A stretch of 7,973 nt of DNA from a virus (Duplodnaviria > Heunggongvirae > Uroviricota > Caudoviricetes). Each line of letters begins with the position of its first letter. Position 1 is the first letter of the stretch. Below, piece by piece: positions 1 through 7,973 of this stretch. Below the pieces are notes generated by a model that did not search any database, was not told the DNA's origin, and was given only the letters and a program-made list of their open reading frames with translations. The stretch lies in the IMG/VR virus record IMGVR_UViG_2703719355_000008; one strand, written 5' to 3'. A program made the translations under genes and the position numbers.

Positions 1-72
1 ACAGATAAAGATACAGATAAAGATACAGATAAAGATACAGATAAAGATACAGATAAAGATACAGATAAAGAA
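1..72 (+). repeat. 12-bp tandem repeat (ACAGATAAAGAT) x6, last unit variant; runs off the window start
   Basis: Direct reading: five perfect copies at 1-60 and a sixth ending GAA at 61-72. In frame 1 this encodes (Thr-Asp-Lys-Asp)n continuous with the downstream ORF. Confidence 0.9.
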
Positions 73-672
73 GATCAAAACACTATGGTCCATGGCGTAA
101 AAAACGCCACGAACCAGGCAGGGGATGTTCAGACCGTCAATCCTGGTCAGCCAGCAGGCACGACACCGGAAGCCGATTCAGCGTATGCGCTGAAAGCCGA
201 TTCGGGCGCTGTGCAGCAGGTGATGACCGCAAGGCCGGAGCAATCACTCCAACTGCAGCAGCCTGAAGCCGATTCCGCCATTCAGTGGGAAGCCGATCGG
301 GTAGTCCCGGAAAACACCGGGCAGTCTGTGGGACGAGTGGATTATCCGGATGTGTTCGAACAGGTCTGGCGGGAGTACCCGTTGCGTGCCGGGGCAAACC
401 CGAAGAAATCCGCTTTCAGTGCCTGGAAGGCCAGATTACGCGAGGGGGTGCCACCAGAGGCCATGCTGGATGGCGTGAGGCGTTACGCAAGATATCTGGC
501 GGTTACCGGGAAAACTGGAACGGAATTTGTTCAGCGAGCGACGACGTTTTTTGGACCGGACCGGAATTTTGAAAACCCCTGGTTGCTCCCGGTAAGCGGC
601 ACGAACAACCAGCGTTGTGTTAATCATATTTCTGAACCGGACACCGAAATTCCGCCGGGATTCAGAGGGTAA
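1..672 (+). CDS. Phage replication-associated protein, 5'-partial (C-terminal conserved phage domain; putative replisome organiser/initiator)
   Basis: Frame 1 is open from nt 1 to TAA at 670-672. The C-terminal part (DYPDVFEQVWREYPLRAG...FGPDRNFENPW) resembles, from memory, the conserved C-terminal domain of lambdoid replication-initiator-type proteins. Function is inferred; the true start lies upstream of the window. Confidence 0.6.
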   Translation, partial: TDKDTDKDTDKDTDKDTDKDTDKEDQNTMVHGVKNATNQAGDVQTVNPGQPAGTTPEADSAYALKADSGAVQQVMTARPEQSLQLQQPEADSAIQWEADRVVPENTGQSVGRVDYPDVFEQVWREYPLRAGANPKKSAFSAWKARLREGVPPEAMLDGVRRYARYLAVTGKTGTEFVQRATTFFGPDRNFENPWLLPVSGTNNQRCVNHISEPDTEIPPGFRG

Positions 673-709
673 CAGATTTCAGGTCATGGGGTAATTTTCA
701 GGAGGACTT

Positions 710-1129
710 GTGGCAAAAGTTTTTACACAAGAAGAGCGAGAAAAAATTAAAGGGCAGGTTATTGAACTTGTACGTCTGAGCGGTCGCGAGACGTTACGGG
801 CTCTGGAGGCTAAAACCGGTGCATCAAGGTATTACATAAGCACTCTCGCCAGAGAACTGGTCGCCAGTGGTGATGTTTACAATTCAGGCTACGGATTATT
901 CCCCTCTGAACAGGCTCGTAAGGACTGGCAAAACGCCCGCAAAAAATTATCGAGGGCAAAGCTGAAGAAACCGGTTGTGGTTGATCCTGACCTTATATGG
1001 TCATTACCAGACGGAGAAATACGTCGCTACGACAGGCGCCTGAATATAATCTGTCGCGAGTGCCGGAAGAGCGAAGTTATGCAGCGAGTGCTGGCGTTTT
1101 ATCAGGGAAATTATCAGGGGGGGCTGTGA
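710..1129 (+). CDS. Hypothetical phage protein (139 aa)
   Basis: GTG start at 710 with AGGAGGA SD at 699-705 (4-nt spacing); long ORF co-oriented with neighbours. No motif recognised with confidence. Confidence 0.7.
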   Translation: MAKVFTQEEREKIKGQVIELVRLSGRETLRALEAKTGASRYYISTLARELVASGDVYNSGYGLFPSEQARKDWQNARKKLSRAKLKKPVVVDPDLIWSLPDGEIRRYDRRLNIICRECRKSEVMQRVLAFYQGNYQGGL

Positions 1130-1186
1130 GTAAAATTAGCTATCAGGCTTCAATTATCGCTGGCATTCGCATCAAAGGAGAGGAGC

Positions 1187-1546
1187 ATGGAAATAAAACC
1201 AGAAGATGAGTTAAGCAATATCGTTTTATTTCCGGTAAAAGAGGATGACCCACGTAATCAGGTTAATTTTCTTTATGAGCCATCGGAAAGACCATACTGC
1301 CATCACGCTTCTGTCCGGGTTGACGAAAAAGAGCGTCAGGTCCGCTGCAAAATCTGTGGTGCAGTTGTGGAGCCGTTTGACTGGATGCTCTCTGTGGCTA
1401 AAAGAGAAACCAGACTGGCAGATGATGTAAGGCTATTGCGCCAGGAGGAACAGGAAAGGCGAAAAAATATAGAAAAGCTAATTCAGATTGAGCGTAACGC
1501 GAAAGCGCGGATACGCAGGGCAACAAAAGCCAGAACTGAATATTAA
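1187..1546 (+). CDS. Hypothetical phage protein with putative zinc-ribbon (CHH...CxxC) and basic coiled C-terminus (119 aa)
   Basis: ATG at 1187 preceded by AAAGGAGAGGAG SD. Cys/His pattern YCHH...CKIC is visible in the translation; C-terminus is rich in R/K/E. Confidence 0.75.
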   Translation: MEIKPEDELSNIVLFPVKEDDPRNQVNFLYEPSERPYCHHASVRVDEKERQVRCKICGAVVEPFDWMLSVAKRETRLADDVRLLRQEEQERRKNIEKLIQIERNAKARIRRATKARTEY

Positions 1547-1591
1547 ATCAGCACTGTAAATAAAATTTAATCCTTAACCGGAGGTATATCT

Positions 1592-1804
1592 ATGTTAAAT
1601 ACACAGAAAACCATTAACGCGGAAAAATATAACGAGTGGGTAAAAAAATTCTCTGAGCAGATTTTTAAAATTACTGGTGACGAGAATGTAGCAAAAAATG
1701 AATTAGAGCCGTGGACACCTGAAGGTGTCGACCCAAATTATTGCTGGTGGGATGTTGATCCAGTTGATGCTGCAAATGAAGCTATGAGTTATCACAACGA
1801 TTAA
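1592..1804 (+). CDS. Hypothetical small acidic phage protein (70 aa)
   Basis: ATG at 1592 with GGAGG SD at 1580-1584 (7-nt spacing); stop TAA at 1802-1804. Confidence 0.65.
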   Translation: MLNTQKTINAEKYNEWVKKFSEQIFKITGDENVAKNELEPWTPEGVDPNYCWWDVDPVDAANEAMSYHND

Positions 1805-1814
1805 TGTCAGGAGG

Positions 1815-1830
1815 CCGCCCGAAAGGGCGG
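1815..1830 (+). promoter_or_regulatory. GC stem-loop with GAAA tetraloop (CCGCCC-GAAA-GGGCGG) between an SD-like AGGAGG (1809-1814) and the GTG start at 1840
   Basis: Perfect 6-bp inverted repeat read directly. No U-tract follows, so not an intrinsic terminator. Placement suggests a translation-initiation or RNA-processing structure. Confidence 0.4.
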
Positions 1831-1839
1831 TAATGAAAA

Positions 1840-2673
1840 GTGACTGAATTAACCAAAGAGAAATTAATCGAAGAAGCCAAATTAAAAATAGCGATTGCGA
1901 AATGCTACTCCAATTCAGGGATGGCACGGGTAGAGGGCGAGTTATTCAAAATTGCACTGGCATCGCTGGAAGCAGAACCAATAGGTGCTTTCCACATTGT
2001 AGAACAGCAAGTTGACGGAACAAGTTACTATATCAAGGATGGGGAATGGCCTATTGATACTGGGATTATTGAAGTCTACGCCGCCTCACCGATGACGGTA
2101 GTGCTGAACGATGTATCTGGACCTCTTGCTCTTGCTTACAAAGAGCTTACACCTGCGATTATGCGCAACCATATCGCTGTATTCGAACGATACGGAATAA
2201 CCCCAAACGATCGCATTACTACAATTCATGCGCTTCGAATTGCGCTGGATGGCATAGAGCGGAGCGACGCCATGCTTCATGGACGTCAGCCATGCCATCA
2301 AATTACCGCCTCAATGGCAAAAGCTATTGCGCTTAAACTTGGTGCCGAACTGAATAACGAAGAAGCAGAGATTTTCGCGGATGGGTATAACACCGCCATG
2401 CTTCATGCCGAAAACTTTCGGGAAAATAAGAATTCGTCAACCAATAATTTTCGGATAACCTCGGAAACGTCAACCAACTCTCCGGCAATCCCTGATGAGG
2501 TGTTGTCCGCAATCCTGAAGGTCGCCAGGGTTCGTGCAGATTTCGATGCTTCTGAAGGTGACAGGCGAGGTATCGGTGGTTGTCTGGATGAGGCCGAGCA
2601 AGAACTTATCGTTACCATTAACAAATACGCCAGTCAGATCGCAGTAGAAGCGATACAGGGGGCGCACCAATGA
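1840..2673 (+). CDS. Hypothetical phage protein (277 aa)
   Basis: Long ORF in the operon orientation. Start uncertain: GTG at 1840 lies 25 nt from the SD with the hairpin in between; next in-frame ATG is at 1918. No Walker A or other catalytic motif recognised. Confidence 0.7.
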   Translation: MTELTKEKLIEEAKLKIAIAKCYSNSGMARVEGELFKIALASLEAEPIGAFHIVEQQVDGTSYYIKDGEWPIDTGIIEVYAASPMTVVLNDVSGPLALAYKELTPAIMRNHIAVFERYGITPNDRITTIHALRIALDGIERSDAMLHGRQPCHQITASMAKAIALKLGAELNNEEAEIFADGYNTAMLHAENFRENKNSSTNNFRITSETSTNSPAIPDEVLSAILKVARVRADFDASEGDRRGIGGCLDEAEQELIVTINKYASQIAVEAIQGAHQ

Positions 2674-2747
2674 GCCGGCCCGATGCATTTGCAGGCGTTG
2701 CTATAGTTATTGCTTTTCTAGTATATGTTATTTGTCGGTGGGGGTAA
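2670..2747 (+). CDS. Candidate 25-aa hydrophobic micro-ORF (MSRPDAFAGVAIVIAFLVYVICRWG)
   Basis: ATG at 2670 overlaps the TGA stop of the 277-aa ORF (ATGA coupling). Encodes one predicted transmembrane-like segment. Below the ORF-track length cutoff; no separate SD. Confidence 0.25.
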   Translation: MSRPDAFAGVAIVIAFLVYVICRWG

Positions 2748-2782
2748 AAACGTTCGCCGGAATTCACACCAAGGGAGGGAAT

Positions 2783-2887
2783 ATGTCGGATGATATTTCA
2801 CTGGTAATGGAAGGCGCTCTGGCTGTTATTGCTGTTGTGGGTGTTTACTGCCTGGTTGTGTTTTTGATGGATCGCCTGGGGAACTGA
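2783..2887 (+). CDS. Candidate 34-aa small membrane peptide (MSDDISLVMEGALAVIAVVGVYCLVVFLMDRLGN)
   Basis: ATG at 2783 preceded by strong SD AAGGGAGGG (2772-2780); single hydrophobic helix; stop TGA at 2885-2887. Not on the ORF track because it is under 60 aa. Confidence 0.45.
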   Translation: MSDDISLVMEGALAVIAVVGVYCLVVFLMDRLGN

Positions 2888-2897
2888 ATTCATTCCG

Positions 2898-2913
2898 TAT
2901 GGGAATTCCCATA
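2898..2913. promoter_or_regulatory. Perfect 16-bp palindrome TATGGGAATTCCCATA
   Basis: Read directly; equals its own reverse complement. Sits between the small-peptide ORF and the putative hok promoter. No U-tract after it, so a protein-binding site is more likely than a terminator. Confidence 0.35.
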
Positions 2914-2927
2914 TCGGGCAAAAACGG

Positions 2928-2956
2928 TTTGCTGTAAAGCGAGAGTTAAGTAGAAT
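2928..2956 (+). promoter_or_regulatory. Putative hok/mok promoter (-35 TTGCTG 2929-2934; -10 TAGAAT 2951-2956; 16-nt spacer)
   Basis: Hexamers read by eye. Predicted start near 2962 coincides with the 5' element (2961-2974) that is complementary to the mRNA 3' end (3337-3351). Confidence 0.4.
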
Positions 2957-3024
2957 TGCTGCGGGTGCTTGAGGCTGTCTGCCTCGGGCATGCCGCCGTA
3001 AGGCAGACAGAGAAAAGCCCCAGT

Positions 3025-3083
3025 TAACATTACGCGTCCGGCAAGACGCTTAACATTAATCTGAGGCCATATCTATGACTTGC
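3025..3083 (-). ncRNA. sok: Putative Sok-like antisense RNA (approximate bounds)
   Basis: Minus-strand promoter-like hexamers: -35 TTGCCT (complement of 3113-3118), 17-nt spacer, -10 TAACCT (complement of 3090-3095), giving a start a few nt inside mok and transcription into the hok leader. This matches the known hok/sok layout. The 3' end is not defined; a GCGTC/GACGC stem lies at 3043-3058. Confidence 0.35.
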
Positions 3084-3287
3084 ACATGTAGGTTAGCCTC
3101 TTACGTGCCGAAAGGCAAGGAGAAGCAGGCTATGAAGCAGCAAAAGGCGATGTTAATCGCCCTGATCGTCATCTGTTTAACCGTCATAGTGACGGCACTG
3201 GTAACGAGGAAAGACCTCTGCGAGGTACGAATCCGAACCGGCCAGACGGAGGTCGCTGTCTTCACAGCTTACGAACCTGAGGAGTAA
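3075..3287 (+). CDS. mok: Mok-like overlapping reading frame (70 aa), in frame with hok
   Basis: ATG at 3075 with SD-like TGAGG 8 nt upstream; N-terminal extension MTCTCRLASYVPKGKEKQA precedes the hok Met, as in chromosomal mok/hok pairs (from memory). Confidence 0.5.
   Translation: MTCTCRLASYVPKGKEKQAMKQQKAMLIALIVICLTVIVTALVTRKDLCEVRIRTGQTEVAVFTAYEPEE
3132..3287 (+). CDS. hok: Hok/Gef-family type I toxin (51 aa small membrane toxin)
   Basis: Translation MKQQKAMLIALIVICLTVIVTALVTRKDLCEVRIRTGQTEVAVFTAYEPEE carries the Hok/Gef signature (TM helix, TRKDLCEV, conserved C-terminus) and is near-identical, from memory, to E. coli HokD/RelF. AAGGAG SD at 3117-3122. Confidence 0.9.
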   Translation: MKQQKAMLIALIVICLTVIVTALVTRKDLCEVRIRTGQTEVAVFTAYEPEE

Positions 3288-3355
3288 GAGACCTGGCGGG
3301 GGAGAAATCCCTCGCCACCTCTGATGTGTCAGGCATCCTCAACGCACCCGCACTT

Positions 3356-3385
3356 AACCCGCTTCGGCGGGTTTTGTTCTTTTTG
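3356..3385 (+). terminator. Rho-independent terminator of the hok transcript (copy 1 of a 23-bp repeat)
   Basis: Stem CCCGC-TTCG-GCGGG (3358-3371) followed by a T-rich tract TTTTGTTCTTTTT. Confidence 0.75.
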
Positions 3386-3427
3386 TGAAAAAAATTCCCT
3401 TAAAGGAGATTTTTTTAACTAAAAAGG

Positions 3428-3455
3428 TTTACTTTGCTTTCGTATATGGTAAATT
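3428..3455 (+). promoter_or_regulatory. Putative promoter of the HTH/peptidase cassette (-35 TTTACT 3428-3433; extended -10 TGgTAAATT 3447-3455)
   Basis: Hexamers read by eye in an AT-rich intergenic region. An imperfect inverted repeat (3485-3501, CTTGC-gttag-GCAAG) lies between the predicted start site and the SD and could be an operator. Confidence 0.3.
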
Positions 3456-3531
3456 TTAGGAATTAGAATTTAAGCGCCCATCAGGCTTGCGTTAGGCAAG
3501 TCTGCTAAATCAACAAATTGAGGATAAAATC

Positions 3532-3891
3532 ATGGCACTCACTGAATTCGGTAAGGCCGTTAGAAAAGCGAGGATCGATACTGACAGTACTCTTCTGACT
3601 ATGTCTCAAGAACTGGGCACTACGCCAGCGTTTCTTAGCGGTTTAGAAACTGGTAGCAAAAAAATACCTCTGAAGTGGGTTAAGAAGATTGATTCTTACT
3701 TCAAGGCCAAAGGTGTAGAAATTGAAGGGTTACAGGAGTTAGCGGCAGTTGCGAATGACTCAGTTCCAGTAAACGGTTTGTCTCAGCAACAGAAAATGCT
3801 TGTAGCGGGATTCGCTAAGTCGCAGTTTACGCCGGAACAGCTAAAGAGTTTTGCAGATTTATTGCAAAAGATTAATAACAATGAGGGGTAA
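3532..3891 (+). CDS. XRE/Cro-type helix-turn-helix transcriptional regulator (119 aa) with C-terminal extension
   Basis: ATG at 3532 with SD GAGGAT at 3521-3526. N-terminus (LTEFGKAVRKARIDTDSTLLTMSQELGTTPAFLSGLETGSKKIP) fits the HTH_XRE pattern. Stop at 3889-3891 is 2 nt before the next gene. Confidence 0.85.
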   Translation: MALTEFGKAVRKARIDTDSTLLTMSQELGTTPAFLSGLETGSKKIPLKWVKKIDSYFKAKGVEIEGLQELAAVANDSVPVNGLSQQQKMLVAGFAKSQFTPEQLKSFADLLQKINNNEG

Positions 3892-3893
3892 TT

Positions 3894-4370
3894 ATGTATC
3901 AAATGAGAGGTAACAGGGTGTCACCGATGCAAGAAGAAGAAATAGCCTACAGAGCTATAAACTTCTGTAATGCTATTGGTCTTACAGCCTCAAAGCGCAA
4001 AAGAAAGCGTTATGATATGTTCTTTGAAAGCCTGTCAATTTATGGGGTTACTCTTGACGTCAGGACCGACAAAGAGTGGGAGGCTCTGACGTATGATCTA
4101 ACTATCGGACATTGTGACCCCGCTTCTCTAACAATTACGGTTCCCAATAAAATATATGTGAATGCTTGCCTTGGGGAAGAGCATGCACTTGCTGTTATCT
4201 TCCACGAGCTAGGTCATTTGCTTCTTGGACACAAAGCAGTTTTACACTTTTCAGTTAAAGAACCTACTCGTATTGAGGATGCAGAATGGCAGGCAGATAC
4301 ATTTGCGGATATCGTACTGGAAACAATTGGCGTGAGAACACAACAGATGTCGTTCGATTTTTATATGTAA
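3894..4370 (+). CDS. ImmA/IrrE-family (COG2856-like) zinc metallopeptidase (158 aa)
   Basis: SD GAGGGG at 3884-3889. HExxH zinc-binding motif FHELGHLLLGH at residues 103-113 (nt 4203-4217), with size and partner arrangement typical of ImmA-like peptidases paired with XRE regulators. Confidence 0.8.
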   Translation: MYQMRGNRVSPMQEEEIAYRAINFCNAIGLTASKRKRKRYDMFFESLSIYGVTLDVRTDKEWEALTYDLTIGHCDPASLTITVPNKIYVNACLGEEHALAVIFHELGHLLLGHKAVLHFSVKEPTRIEDAEWQADTFADIVLETIGVRTQQMSFDFYM

Positions 4371-4371
4371 A

Positions 4372-4396
4372 AGCCCTGCGCTAACAGGGCTTTTAG
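4372..4396 (+). terminator. Rho-independent terminator after the peptidase gene
   Basis: Stem AGCCCTG-CGCTAA-CAGGGCT followed by TTTTA. Confidence 0.65.
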
Positions 4397-4498
4397 GGAC
4401 GGAAAGTGCGCTAACACATTCCGTAGTGTATGGAGATAATCCAATCACAACACTTTTTGTAGACAAGCGAAGTGTAGTGGTTCTCCCAACAAAGTGCA

Positions 4499-4518
4499 AC
4501 CTGTGTGGATTCACAGGT
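4499..4518. promoter_or_regulatory. Perfect inverted repeat ACCTGTG-tggatt-CACAGGT 20 bp upstream of the Cys-rich ORF
   Basis: Read directly: 7-bp arms, 6-nt spacer. Candidate operator or leader hairpin. Confidence 0.35.
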
Positions 4519-4537
4519 GAGCAGGGAAAACGAAATC

Positions 4538-4687
4538 ATGGCAATGGGTACCTGTCGCAAATGTGGCTGTCCATGTGAGATCATTTTTCGCTACTCTGTG
4601 TGTGTAGATGGTGTAATGCGCCACGCGAAAAAAGGGAAGCCTTTCCCGATCCCACTTTGCAGTTGTAGTGGCAAGCACGCAGCTTGA
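4538..4687 (+). CDS. Candidate Cys-rich small protein (49 aa; CxxCxCxC ... C ... CxC)
   Basis: ATG at 4538 with stop TGA at 4685-4687; 7 Cys in 49 aa (MAMGTCRKCGCPCEIIFRYSVCVDGVMRHAKKGKPFPIPLCSCSGKHAA). Weak SD. Followed by its own terminator. The track's longer version (GTG 4505) would start inside the palindrome. Confidence 0.4.
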   Translation: MAMGTCRKCGCPCEIIFRYSVCVDGVMRHAKKGKPFPIPLCSCSGKHAA

Positions 4688-4703
4688 TGTTCAGTACTGA
4701 CAA

Positions 4704-4731
4704 AACCCGCTTCGGCGGGTTTTGTTTTTTC
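4704..4731 (+). terminator. Rho-independent terminator (copy 2 of the 23-bp repeat)
   Basis: AACCCGCTTCGGCGGGTTTTGTT at 4704-4726 is identical to 3356-3378 and is followed by a T-run. Confidence 0.75.
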
Positions 4732-4802
4732 CTGGCATTCTGGTTTACAATTCGCACGTCAGCCTGAACAACTGGCACCTGCTGCGCCAGCAGAGAAAGA
4801 CG

Positions 4803-5081
4803 ATGGCGCACAATACCAAATCACACAATTCTGATAATTCAGCTGTCTTTGCCAGCAGGCACGGGCGGCGTTCCCGCACATTCAAATCTGATTGGTACCA
4901 GCATCCCCCATGTACTGAAGAACAAGCTGAATGGCTAATTCAGTGCTACCGCAGACACGGATACGGGATTAAGAAAGCCCTCAGCCTCGATTATCGTCAC
5001 TGGATAATCTCCGTCAGGCTTCCTTACTCTGAACGCCCACCGCGTCCGTCCCGCACATTCCAGCAACGCATCTGGAGGTAA
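4803..5081 (+). CDS. Hypothetical phage protein (92 aa)
   Basis: In-frame ATG at 4803 chosen because the track start at 4722 overlaps the terminator. Stop TAA at 5079-5081 is 1 nt before the next gene's GTG, implying translational coupling. Confidence 0.55.
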   Translation: MAHNTKSHNSDNSAVFASRHGRRSRTFKSDWYQHPPCTEEQAEWLIQCYRRHGYGIKKALSLDYRHWIISVRLPYSERPPRPSRTFQQRIWR

Positions 5082-5082
5082 C

Positions 5083-6138
5083 GTGCGGGTATTACTTCGA
5101 CCTGTTCTGGTACCGGAACTCGGGCTGGTGATCGTTAAGCCGGGCCGTGAATCCATGCCGGTATTCCACAATACCCGGGTACTGGTGGAGCCGGAACCGA
5201 AAAGCATGCGTAATCTGTCGTCCGGGGTCGTTCCTGCCGTTCGCCAGCCGCTGGCGGAGGATAAATCATTACTGCCATTTTTCAGCGACGAACGAGTGAT
5301 TCGTGCTGCTGGTGGCGCTGGCGCATTGTCTGACTGGTTACTGCGCCATGTTAAATCCTGCCAGTGGCCACACGGCGATTATCACCACAGTGAAACCGTC
5401 ATTCACCGTTATGGTACCGGCGCAATGGTGTTGTGCTGGCACTGCGACAACCAGCTGCGCGACCAGACCTCCGAATCACTCGGGCAACTTGCTCAACAAA
5501 ACCTGACATCCTGGATGATTGACGTCATCCGCCACGCAATAAACGGTACACAGGAGCGGGAGTTATCGCTGGCTGAATTATCCTGGTGGGCGGTCTGCAA
5601 TCAGGTAGCGGACGTATTGCCGGAGGCAGTATTACGTCGTTCTCTGGGATTGCGTGCGGAAAAAATCCGCTCGGTGTACCGCGAAAGCGACATCGTACCG
5701 GGAGAGCAGACCGCCACCAGCATACTGAAGCAGCGCACAAAAAATCTTGCGCTGCTGCCTCACGCCCACCAGCAAAACCCGCCACAGGAAAAGACGGTGG
5801 TCAGCATTGCCGTTGATCCGGAGTCACCGGCTCAGTATCTCCAGCGCCAGAAACCACAACGGGAAGAGATGCCTGTATACACGCGCTGGGTAAAAACGCA
5901 GAAATGCATGACGTGCGGTAATCAGGCAGATGATCCGCATCACATCATTGGTCATGGACTGGGAGGGATGGGAACAAAGGCTGATGATTTGTTTGTTATT
6001 CCGCTGTGCCGTAAATGTCATAACGAACTGCACGCCGGGGTAAAAGATTTTGAAGAAAAACACGGCAGCCAGCTGTTGTTGCTGATTCGTTTTTTAATGC
6101 ACGCGAGAAATTCGGGTGTCCTGAAGTGGAAAGCATGA
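5083..6138 (+). CDS. DUF968/YdfU-like phage protein with C-terminal HNH-like Cys/His motif (351 aa)
   Basis: GTG at 5083 with GGAGG SD 4 nt upstream. C-terminus CMTCGNQADDPHHIIGHG...PLCRKCHNELH resembles an HNH-type zinc-finger nuclease motif. Size and position next to Q match ydfU-type genes (from memory). Confidence 0.75.
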   Translation: MRVLLRPVLVPELGLVIVKPGRESMPVFHNTRVLVEPEPKSMRNLSSGVVPAVRQPLAEDKSLLPFFSDERVIRAAGGAGALSDWLLRHVKSCQWPHGDYHHSETVIHRYGTGAMVLCWHCDNQLRDQTSESLGQLAQQNLTSWMIDVIRHAINGTQERELSLAELSWWAVCNQVADVLPEAVLRRSLGLRAEKIRSVYRESDIVPGEQTATSILKQRTKNLALLPHAHQQNPPQEKTVVSIAVDPESPAQYLQRQKPQREEMPVYTRWVKTQKCMTCGNQADDPHHIIGHGLGGMGTKADDLFVIPLCRKCHNELHAGVKDFEEKHGSQLLLLIRFLMHARNSGVLKWKA

Positions 6139-6504
6139 ATGACTGAACGCATAGAATTTGTTTTGCCTTACCCGCCGACGGTGAACACCTACTGGCGACG
6201 TCGTGGCAGCACATATTTTGTGTCAAAAGCCGGTGAGCGTTATCGCCGGGATGTGGCACTTATTGTTCGCCAGCAGCGGCTGAAATTAAACCTGTCCGGA
6301 AGGCTGGCGATAAAGATTATTGCAGAGCCACCGGATAAGCGCCGCCGCGACCTGGACAATATCCTGAAGGCACCACTGGATGCGCTTACGCATGCCGGAC
6401 TACTTATAGACGACGAGCAGTTTGATGAAATCAATATTGTGCGCGGTCAGCTCGTTTCTGGTGGGCGGCTGGGCGTGAAGATTTACAAAATTGAAAGTGA
6501 GTGA
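6139..6504 (+). CDS. rusA: RusA-family Holliday junction resolvase (121 aa)
   Basis: Translation (PYPPTVNTYWRRRG ... PDKRRRDLDNILKAPLDALTHAGLLIDDEQ ... GGRLGVKIY) matches the RusA pattern including the DxD acidic motif. ATG sits directly after the upstream TGA. Confidence 0.9.
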   Translation: MTERIEFVLPYPPTVNTYWRRRGSTYFVSKAGERYRRDVALIVRQQRLKLNLSGRLAIKIIAEPPDKRRRDLDNILKAPLDALTHAGLLIDDEQFDEINIVRGQLVSGGRLGVKIYKIESE

Positions 6505-7067
6505 GCATAAATATGATATACCCGGAAATTACAGGCAAAAGCGGTGAGCATTTACGCCTGAAAACGCTGGAAAGTGTCTGGATCCAGGGGAAACTGCGTA
6601 TGTGGGGGCGTTGGTCGTATATTGGCGACGGTAAGACGGGAAATATGTTCAACCAATTACTGACCTCTAAAAAGCTGACAAAAACGGCAATTAACGAGGC
6701 GCTCCGGAGGATGAAAAAAGCGGGTCTGGACAAACCTGAACTTGAGGCTTTTTTGCGGGATATGATCAACGGCAATCAAAAAAGCTGGCTGGCACATTGT
6801 ACCGATTCAGAGGCGTTAATAATCGACAGGGTTATTGGTGAAGTACTGGCAGGTTATCCCGGGCTGCTCAATGTTCTGAGTCAGCGTTATGTGGGGCGGG
6901 GGATGACTAAGCGCAAAATGGCTGAACTGCTGAATGATGCACATCCGGAATGGAGTTTAAGAACCTGTGAAAGACGCATTGAGCATTGGCTAAAGGTGGC
7001 AGAATTTATTTTGTACAAACCAATGGTTATGGCTTTTGGTATAGAGAAAAAAATTATTGCTTTTTGA
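6501..7067 (+). CDS. Q-type late-gene antiterminator (phage 82/933W-like Q family)
   Basis: Position immediately after rusA and before a strong terminator. The segment RMWGRWSYIGDG...NQLLTSKKLTK resembles the ERWGAWAA...GLITSK block of this Q family (from memory). Start is either GTG 6501 (GTGA overlap with rusA stop) or ATG 6513. Confidence 0.7.
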   Translation: MSINMIYPEITGKSGEHLRLKTLESVWIQGKLRMWGRWSYIGDGKTGNMFNQLLTSKKLTKTAINEALRRMKKAGLDKPELEAFLRDMINGNQKSWLAHCTDSEALIIDRVIGEVLAGYPGLLNVLSQRYVGRGMTKRKMAELLNDAHPEWSLRTCERRIEHWLKVAEFILYKPMVMAFGIEKKIIAF

Positions 7068-7144
7068 CGTAAAAACTGCTTCAATTCCGGTAAGCTTCGC
7101 AAAGCTGTACCGCGAGGCGAATAGCAGACATGGACATTTGAAAG

Positions 7145-7168
7145 AGCCCGCTTTTTGCGGGTTTTTTT
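7145..7168 (+). terminator. Rho-independent terminator downstream of Q (candidate tR')
   Basis: Stem CCCGC-TTTTT-GCGGG followed by TTTTTTT; about 80 nt after the Q stop. A convincing pR' promoter was not found (TTGACG at 7064-7069 has no good -10). Confidence 0.7.
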
Positions 7169-7489
7169 ATGACTGAAAAACGGCACGGGGCGTTAAACGC
7201 GCTGGTGGTTGCGAATACCGGTCTTTCAACTTGCTGGCTTTTTCGACAAGAGTTATTGGTATGTCACGTTAACCGGAAAATGGAAAAAGGCATGCTAAAA
7301 CAGCAGGATATGACCGAAACCGCCAGAGTGGTGTTTAATGAATTAAGCGTCACCGAACCGGCGACCGCCGGGGAAATTGCGCAGAACACTTATCTTTCAC
7401 GCGAATGCTGCCAGTTAATACTGACCCAGCTTGTTATGGCGGGTCTGGCAGATTATCAGTTCGGTTGTTACAGACGCCTTCCTCAGTGA
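7169..7489 (+). CDS. Hypothetical small protein (up to 106 aa; start uncertain, alternative ATGs at 7280/7292/7310)
   Basis: ORF begins directly after the terminator T-run with no convincing SD at any candidate start; weak coding call. Confidence 0.3.
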   Translation: MTEKRHGALNALVVANTGLSTCWLFRQELLVCHVNRKMEKGMLKQQDMTETARVVFNELSVTEPATAGEIAQNTYLSRECCQLILTQLVMAGLADYQFGCYRRLPQ

Positions 7490-7500
7490 AGGCTTTTTTA
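7476..7500 (+). terminator. Putative weak rho-independent terminator
   Basis: Stem GCCTT-CCTCAGTG-AAGGC overlapping the stop codon, followed by TTTTTTATTT. Confidence 0.4.
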
Positions 7501-7614
7501 TTTGTGGTAATGGGCGGCTGGTGGGTGTTAGCGGCACCTGCCAGCCATCTGCTCATGCGTTGGGGTCACAAGCAAACCTCAGGCCCATCTGCTTTGCGCA
7601 AAAGCGGTATGAGC

Positions 7615-7862
7615 CTATCAGAGAAGTGCTTATTGATCTATGGCTAATACTGTAAAAATATCCAGTTGTGAGTTAATCAACGCTGATTGCCTGGAATTTA
7701 TCCAGACCTTACCGGAAAACTCTGTCGATCTGATAGAAAACTATCAGAGAAGTGCTTATTGATCTATGATTAATACTGTAAAAATATCCAGTTGTGAGTT
7801 AATCAACGCTGATTGCCTGGAATTTATCCAGACCTTACCGGAAAACTCTGTCGATCTGATAG
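7615..7862 (+). repeat. Tandem duplication (~126-bp period; copies 7615-7736 and 7741-7862) of the methyltransferase upstream region plus first 32 codons
   Basis: The two copies differ at only 2 positions (ATGGCT vs ATGATT at the start codon context). Each copy begins CTATCAG and ends CTGATAG, so the junction forms the palindrome CTGATAG-aaaa-CTATCAG. Confidence 0.9.
7640..7762 (+). pseudogene. Truncated duplicate of the methyltransferase 5' end (40-codon ORF, MANTVKISSCELINADCLEFIQTLPENSVDLIENYQRSAY)
   Basis: First repeat copy has its own ATG; it diverges from the intact gene at codon 33 and terminates at TGA 7760-7762, inside copy 2 upstream of the real start. Confidence 0.35.
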
Positions 7863-7973
7863 TCACAGACCCGCCATACTTTAAAGTGAAGCCCGAGGGC
7901 TGGGATAACCAGTGGAAGGGCGACGATGATTACCTGAAGTGGCTGGACCAGTGTCTGGCGCAGTTCTGGCGGG
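7766..7973 (+). CDS. N6-adenine DNA methyltransferase, 3'-partial
   Basis: ATG at 7766. Motif SVDLIVTDPPYF (DPPY catalytic motif of the N6A/N4C beta-class methyltransferases) at nt 7868-7879. ORF runs off the window end. Confidence 0.85.
   Translation, partial: MINTVKISSCELINADCLEFIQTLPENSVDLIVTDPPYFKVKPEGWDNQWKGDDDYLKWLDQCLAQFWR

Follow-up and report, generated by a model that had tools for sequence, protein, structure and literature searches.

An apparent tandem duplication at the start of a lambdoid prophage methyltransferase gene is probably an assembly artefact at a scaffold gap

Described false duplications and the prophage locus

Duplicated overlapping contigs (DOCs) are adjoining contigs that align to each other only at their variant-bearing ends and that should be merged; where allelic differences keep such ends unmerged, they appear as false segmental duplications (Kelley & Salzberg 2010, PMC2864568). 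Heterotype false duplications, in which the copies are separated by assembly gaps, are a cause of false gene and exon gains (Ko et al. 2022, PMC9516828). In a widely used bacterial pipeline, contigs linked by read pairs receive an N gap of unknown length, which is then filled greedily from reads that did not map as proper pairs, with false joins as a possible outcome. After this greedy filling a few Ns of a gap may still stand open, and any piece shorter than the fragment size is preserved only as part of a scaffold (PMC5320598).

The stretch of DNA analysed here, referred to as the window, is 7,973 nt long and corresponds to the whole of record CYGN01000107.1 (7973 bp, range 1-7973; locus L011) of the draft Escherichia coli NCBI assembly GCA_001286505.1, which was retrieved by look-up of a 277-aa protein of the window. 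An identical 7973-bp contig is reported in two samples of the index, and a literature search returned no mention of the accession (GCA_001286505.1/CYGN01000107.1). The window covers the early-to-late region of a lambdoid E. coli prophage and holds, in order, the 3' part of a replisome-organizer gene, DUF977, hok/sok, DUF968, RusA, a Q-type antiterminator, a small ORF, and the start of a PF01555 methyltransferase gene (Table 1). The Q-type antiterminator upstream places the methyltransferase in the late-operon leader region. Both the family profile and the DPPY motif were found for this gene: the 352-aa orthologue in strain SLK172 matches PF01555 with E = 6e-44 (151 bits against a cut-off of 26.7), and the window translation includes ...VDLIVTDPPYF.... 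SLK172 has the same gene order, with tRNA-Ile/Arg/Arg downstream of the methyltransferase. The order of Q antiterminator, small ORF, methyltransferase and tRNA genes is also that of the lambdoid late-region methyltransferases of PF01555 in phage phiP27, Stx-converting phages and SfV (orf48), to which this locus shows a DNA identity of 82-97%, with the DPPY motif after codon 32. When the repeat described below is collapsed to one copy, the locus shows no difference from this family and is an ordinary member of it.

Other features of the window were observed alongside. The terminator-like hairpin at the end of the small ORF could be a late-operon terminator acted on by Q or the small ORF's own terminator, and a simple scan of 6900-7973 gave no sigma-70-like promoter. 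A hok/sok-type toxin-antitoxin module, which is typical prophage cargo, lies at 2963-3287, where a HOK_GEF toxin gene (3132-3287) begins within an Rfam match to the sok antitoxin RNA (114 bits). At positions 1-71, a perfect 12-nt array of ACAGATAAAGAT (5.9 copies) runs in frame, as (Thr-Asp-Lys-Asp)n, within the replisome-organizer (O-like) gene. The same array occurs in L007 at 8219, L008 at 8174, L009 at 4409 and L010 at 3877, and the copy numbers among otherwise identical or near-identical prophages are 2, 3, 4, 5 and at least 5.9, with proteins of 348, 360, 364 and 368 aa. The array is a variable-number repeat in the linker of the replication protein, and the left end of the record falls inside it. 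An independent k=31 Logan contig from a related sample starts at window position 42, i.e. with exactly k-1 = 30 nt of the array. The left and the right end of the record both look like assembly breaks.

The repeat and the scaffold gap at its junction

As read in the window, positions 7615-7862 form a tandem repeat with a period of 126, 2.0 copies, 98% matches and a score of 482 (TRF). Position-by-position comparison of the two 122-nt copies found 120 of 122 positions identical, far beyond what chance would give. The sole difference is GC at 7643-7644 versus AT at 7769-7770, so the near-identical copies with two mismatches, both in codon 2, are present as the earlier note had described them. 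Each block holds a 25-nt leader and the first 32 methyltransferase codons, and the AAAA between the blocks (7737-7740) matches neither flank. The ATG at 7640 opens a 40-codon ORF, whose TGA stop (7760-7762) lies 3 nt upstream of, and in the same frame as, a second ATG at 7766; the frame of the latter, MINTVKISSCELINADCLEFIQTLPENSVDLIVTDPPYF..., stays open through the end of the window. The block ends form a perfect inverted repeat, CTATCAGA on the left and TCTGATAG on the right, which had been noted before as a pair of 7-mers but is 8 nt long. With AAAA as the loop, these ends fold into an 8-bp hairpin of -6.4 kcal/mol.

The public record differs from the window at only four positions, 7737-7740, where it reads NNNN instead of AAAA, and the remaining AAAA runs of the window are identical in CYGN01000107.1. 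Because these other runs are unchanged, the Ns represent a native gap and not masking by a tool, and what joins the two copies is a scaffold gap in place of sequence. It follows that placeholder bases, and not sequenced DNA, underlie the hairpin loop, the in-frame period of 126 (42 codons) and codons 33-34 of the ORF. The head-to-tail duplication of about 126 bp proposed in the earlier note thus stands as two 122-nt copies with a period of 126, but across a junction that is NNNN in the public record. Similarly, the truncated 40-codon ORF can be read in the window, but its stop and frame depend on the gap having been written as four bases, and the proposed hairpin-capable junction is not supported, its loop being those same four placeholders. 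The repeat is present in the window, yet no DNA molecule is demonstrated to carry it.

Table 1. Positions of the main features in the window
Feature	Coordinates	Strand	Remarks
Scaffold piece A	1..7736	+	Lambdoid prophage early-to-late region, from replisome organizer 3' part to methyltransferase codon 32; ends directly before NNNN
Q-type antiterminator (DUF1133 / Phage_antitermQ)	6501..7067	+	PF06576 E = 4e-105, PF06530 E = 6e-8
Terminator-like hairpin GCCTTC-CTCAGT-GAAGGC with T-run	7476..7503	+	Consensus match only; at stop codon of small ORF (7169/7292-7489)
Overlap block, end of piece A	7615..7736	+	GC allele, ATG GCT = Met-Ala; matches single copy of SLK172, L004, L005, L007-L010
Left arm CTATCAGA of native perfect 8-bp inverted repeat	7615..7622	+	Right arm TCTGATAG at 7729-7736 and 7855-7862
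Spurious 40-codon 'decoy' ORF	7640..7762	+	True methyltransferase codons 1-32 read over gap placeholder into leader of piece B
Scaffold gap	7737..7740	.	NNNN in CYGN01000107.1, AAAA in window
Scaffold piece B, 233 nt	7741..7973	+	Methyltransferase leader and first 69 codons, to record end
Overlap block, start of piece B	7741..7862	+	AT allele, ATG ATT = Met-Ile; allele known from single-copy loci of O26, ETEC and EPEC strains
Prophage DNA methyltransferase, 5' part (N6_N4_Mtase, VDLIVTDPPY motif)	7766..7973	+	Translation; cut by record end

The facing ends of the two scaffold pieces overlap, the last 122 nt of piece A being the first 122 nt of piece B (120/122). While a genuine duplication would be marked by a contiguous sequenced junction between its copies, NNNN was found in that place, together with three marks of false duplication: a gap between the copies, an overlap of the facing ends, and a merge that restores the sequence of relatives. 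As in DOCs, the pieces of this record align only at their facing ends, with small differences, and their merge restores a sequence seen elsewhere. Unlike DOCs, which were described from diploid vertebrate haplotypes with kb-scale overlaps (PMC2864568), the present case concerns a haploid bacterium and a 122-nt overlap, and the place of the 'second haplotype' would be taken by a mixed site or by a prophage copy that is paralogous. The gap between copies, the distinguishing variant k-mers, and the false gene fragment (here the 40-codon ORF) are shared with heterotype duplications (PMC9516828), although these were called with read-depth and read-pair criteria, whereas our call is made from sequence alone. 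A 233-nt piece behind a 4-N gap fits scaffolding of the SSPACE/GapFiller type (PMC5320598), while piece ends that fall on an inverted repeat are not among the documented behaviours of such tools. The stored gene list of the record has no gene downstream of 7489, and neither the 40-codon ORF nor the methyltransferase fragment is called in it.

Copy number and codon-2 alleles among relatives

A 574-nt query over the repeat found matches in 2,136 of 5,426 complete E. coli genomes and, among the matches listed, spans 448 nt of each genome, which is 126 less. The collapsed sequence aligns in one piece to SLK172 at 99.8% and is covered to at least 80% at a single place in 1,873 complete E. coli genomes. 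Three independent draft assemblies (L008, L009 and L010) have no mismatch to piece A over the 7,664 nt compared, and in each of them the block is single and leads into an intact 352-aa gene. Two short contigs from other samples (L004 and L005) likewise hold one block copy each, and the same count was obtained throughout loci L001-L005 and L007-L010. Comparison with homologous methyltransferase loci, a check that the earlier note had put forward, therefore went against a duplication, with one copy at each related locus examined. No independent occurrence of the duplication was seen among the listed best matches of the 2,136 E. coli genomes or in L001-L005/L007-L010, and the duplicated arrangement is absent from about 2,100 E. 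coli genomes that carry the gene and from 80 phage records. An upstream ORF, as would be found with a leader peptide, is lacking in the homologous loci.

Searches for the junction itself were also negative. An 80-nt query centred on it was never contiguous in the 5,426 complete E. coli genomes, splitting to both ends of one 122-nt block, and the exact junction string was not found in one genome per GTDB species, in IMG/VR, or in JGI metagenome contigs. The 40-aa product has no record among 153 billion gene positions and no Pfam match. Among the complete genomes searched, no E. coli genome has AAAA adjoining either end of the block. The idea that AAAA is filler from another natural allele was rejected, as no allele has AAAA at the block ends and the Ns account for it.

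The two bases by which the copies differ are known variants. Close relatives have GC at codon 2 (Met-Ala), the AT allele (Met-Ile) is found in single-copy loci of O26, ETEC and EPEC strains, and both are natural single-copy alleles; in diverged homologs codon 2 reads GCT, ATT, TTT or AAA. Methyltransferase codon 2 is unusually variable among homologs, while the adjoining codons are invariant. The AT allele turns TGATTAA into a perfect 7-nt inverted repeat of TTAATCA, which lies about 30 nt downstream, and this arrangement suggests that the GC-to-AT change could be a recurrent quasipalindrome-templated mutation.

Piece B differs from the prophages of L008-L010 only by the GC-to-AT change and has no exact match among complete E. 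coli genomes, the best having 2 mismatches. It is a mosaic, combining Ile2 of the AT class with Lys51 (K51) of the GC class (P1-type). The two allele classes differ at block coordinates 29, 30, 176, 199, 235, 241 and further, and the record stops at block coordinate 233, just short of the discriminating site at 235. Because E. coli genomes hold up to seven places that match this region, we infer from the mosaic and from the stop before site 235 that a paralogous methyltransferase allele in the isolate's read set has interfered with the assembly.

Origin of the apparent duplication

We consider the apparent 126-bp duplication very likely to be an artefact of assembly that belongs with the DOCs. 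An artefact was one of three options offered in the earlier note, and it is the one favoured by the scaffold gap and by the single copy at every related locus examined. In this process, pieces of 7,736 nt and 233 nt from a short-read draft would have been linked by read pairs, with four unknown bases left as a residual gap. Both pieces would cover one and the same genome stretch over 122 nt, and their ends would never have been merged, most likely because of the GC/AT dinucleotide mismatch, at which a merge that relies on exact overlap would fail. The mismatch itself probably stems from reads of two paralogous prophage methyltransferase alleles or from a mixed site, and both this second allele among the isolate's reads and the software step behind the failed merge are parts that we infer. 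Replacement of NNNN by AAAA during preparation of the window then produced the fake filler, the hairpin loop, the in-frame 126-nt period and the 40-codon ORF. The relatives and the gap indicate that the isolate's true genome most probably has one copy, with an ordinary methyltransferase start.

One property of the pieces lies outside the account that this model gives. The last bases of piece A are the right arm, TCTGATAG, and piece B opens with the left arm, CTATCAGA, the exact reverse complement of the former. Even when it is taken into account that the region has two perfect inverted repeats of 8 nt or more, the chance that arbitrary contig ends would fall on such arms is about 1.5e-5 to 2.5e-5 (~4^-8). 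This coincidence is unexplained by the artefact model and keeps our confidence in it high rather than near complete. The simple de Bruijn and greedy-extension models that we worked through all fail to yield repeat-aligned ends together with the GC/AT difference. A single assembler k was rejected as the source of the piece ends, since the array end (71 nt) gives a k of about 71-73, piece B, which starts 28 nt ahead of the variant, gives k=29, and the 122-nt overlap gives k=123. An allele mosaic boundary at the block ends was also rejected, as homology between prophage or phage alleles breaks at query positions 110, 210, 229, 263, 282, ~380, 428 and 477 and not at 316/437.

The 8-bp repeat forms the perfect centre of a longer, imperfect inverted repeat of 17 nt (14/17; 7606-7622 / 7855-7871, with a native spacing of 106 nt). 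This longer repeat flanks the stretch with the ribosome-binding site, start codon and first 32 codons, and no function is evident for it. In SfV, mEp460 and phiNP the 8-bp repeat decays to 5-6 of 8 pairs, without compensatory changes. A perfect 13-nt inverted repeat, TATGGCGGGTCTG / CAGACCCGCCATA (7435-7447 / 7866-7878), has one arm in the 3' part of the small ORF that follows Q and the other in the DPPY codons. Chance alone would give about 0.003 repeats of this kind in 574 nt; close alleles keep this one, but in diverged homologs it drops to 6-11 of 13 positions without compensation. A conserved DNA or RNA structure was rejected, given that neither the 8-bp nor the 13-nt repeat is maintained by compensatory changes.

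Tandem duplication, partial inversion and fold-back would each place branch points at the outer repeat edges, and an artefact would be the simpler account of the unsequenced junction and the GC/AT mosaic. It is unlikely that part of the isolate's population carries a real rearrangement of the 122-bp block, through hairpin-mediated tandem duplication or inversion, which the assembler then rendered as a gap-flanked duplication; if it did, the rearrangement would be an unstable on/off or dosage variant of the phage methyltransferase. We regard it as quite improbable that the 122-nt block is truly duplicated in tandem in this isolate, either fixed or in a fraction of the culture, through replication slippage in which the nascent strand folded back at the 8-bp repeat, and that the assembler left a small gap there. 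Such an event, bounded by the repeat, would match piece ends that are the exact outer edges of the inverted repeat, and would turn precisely block positions 1 and 122, where the successor base is ambiguous, into branch points of the graph; the direct junction, reading ...GATCTGATAG into CTATCAGAGAAG..., would form a perfect 16-nt palindrome. However, true junction k-mers would be unique and well covered and are normally included by assemblers, whereas this junction is unsequenced (NNNN), and the duplication is missing from all relatives, the three isolates that share this very prophage among them, as well as from all collections searched. An extra gene-conversion step would also be required, as GC/AT is a pre-existing natural allele difference, and the mosaic of piece B and its end at a paralogue-discriminating site already imply a second allele in the reads. 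Given the explicit scaffold gap and the single-copy state of the related loci examined, the earlier proposal of a real duplication that creates a truncated decoy ORF is not supported.

It is very improbable that the 106-bp segment between the 8-bp repeats, on which the ribosome-binding site and the start codon lie, inverts in some of the population as an intragenic or promoter-proximal 'inverton', or that fold-back chimeric library molecules formed at this repeat. The inverted junction would join ...GGTATGAGCCTATCAGA to TCGACAGAGTTTTCC..., and in reads GGTATGAGCCTATCAGA to TCGACAGAG, yet the inverted form is absent from the 5,426 complete E. coli genomes, where the best matches are forced alignments of about 79%, and from the GTDB representatives, and an inverton was rejected on this ground. 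In diverged homologs the repeat decays with no compensatory change, and Pfam finds no recombinase among the called genes of the window. Block k-mers common to both orientations, with flanks that differ exactly at block 0 and 123, would reproduce the observed piece ends, with the block used in both neighbours, and gap filling with only non-proper-pair reads enriches aberrant reads (PMC5320598), but an inversion also predicts breaks at the inner repeat edges, which piece A crosses, and GC versus AT is left without account. An evolved regulatory device, in which the decoy ORF is translationally coupled to the methyltransferase or the copy number acts as a switch, we hold to be extremely implausible. 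Termination-reinitiation would be possible if the DNA were real, with the ORF stopping 3 nt before the second ATG and in frame with it. That frame, however, hangs on a gap written as four bases, and the in-frame TGA is native leader sequence found upstream of every single-copy gene. The arrangement recurs in no other of the roughly 2,100 gene-carrying E. coli genomes or in the 80 phage records, and with neither a duplicated state nor an upstream ORF conserved in those genomes, the copy-number regulatory switch suggested in the earlier note finds no footing.

With an assembly artefact as the preferred reading, the locus bears mainly on how draft records are handled. Replacement of N by A in such records fabricates filler DNA, hairpins and reading frames, so that short internal N runs need to be masked or flagged, and other windows taken from draft records with internal Ns may hold similar fake poly-A filler. 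Where near-perfect tandem repeats lie near contig ends and a few odd bases part the copies, the source record should be consulted before interpretation. Such false duplications yield false small ORFs and may truncate or hide real genes, and in assembly GCA_001286505.1 the false duplication in effect hides the methyltransferase gene. For the biology of the prophage its weight is very small, the collapsed locus being an ordinary lambdoid-prophage methyltransferase start.
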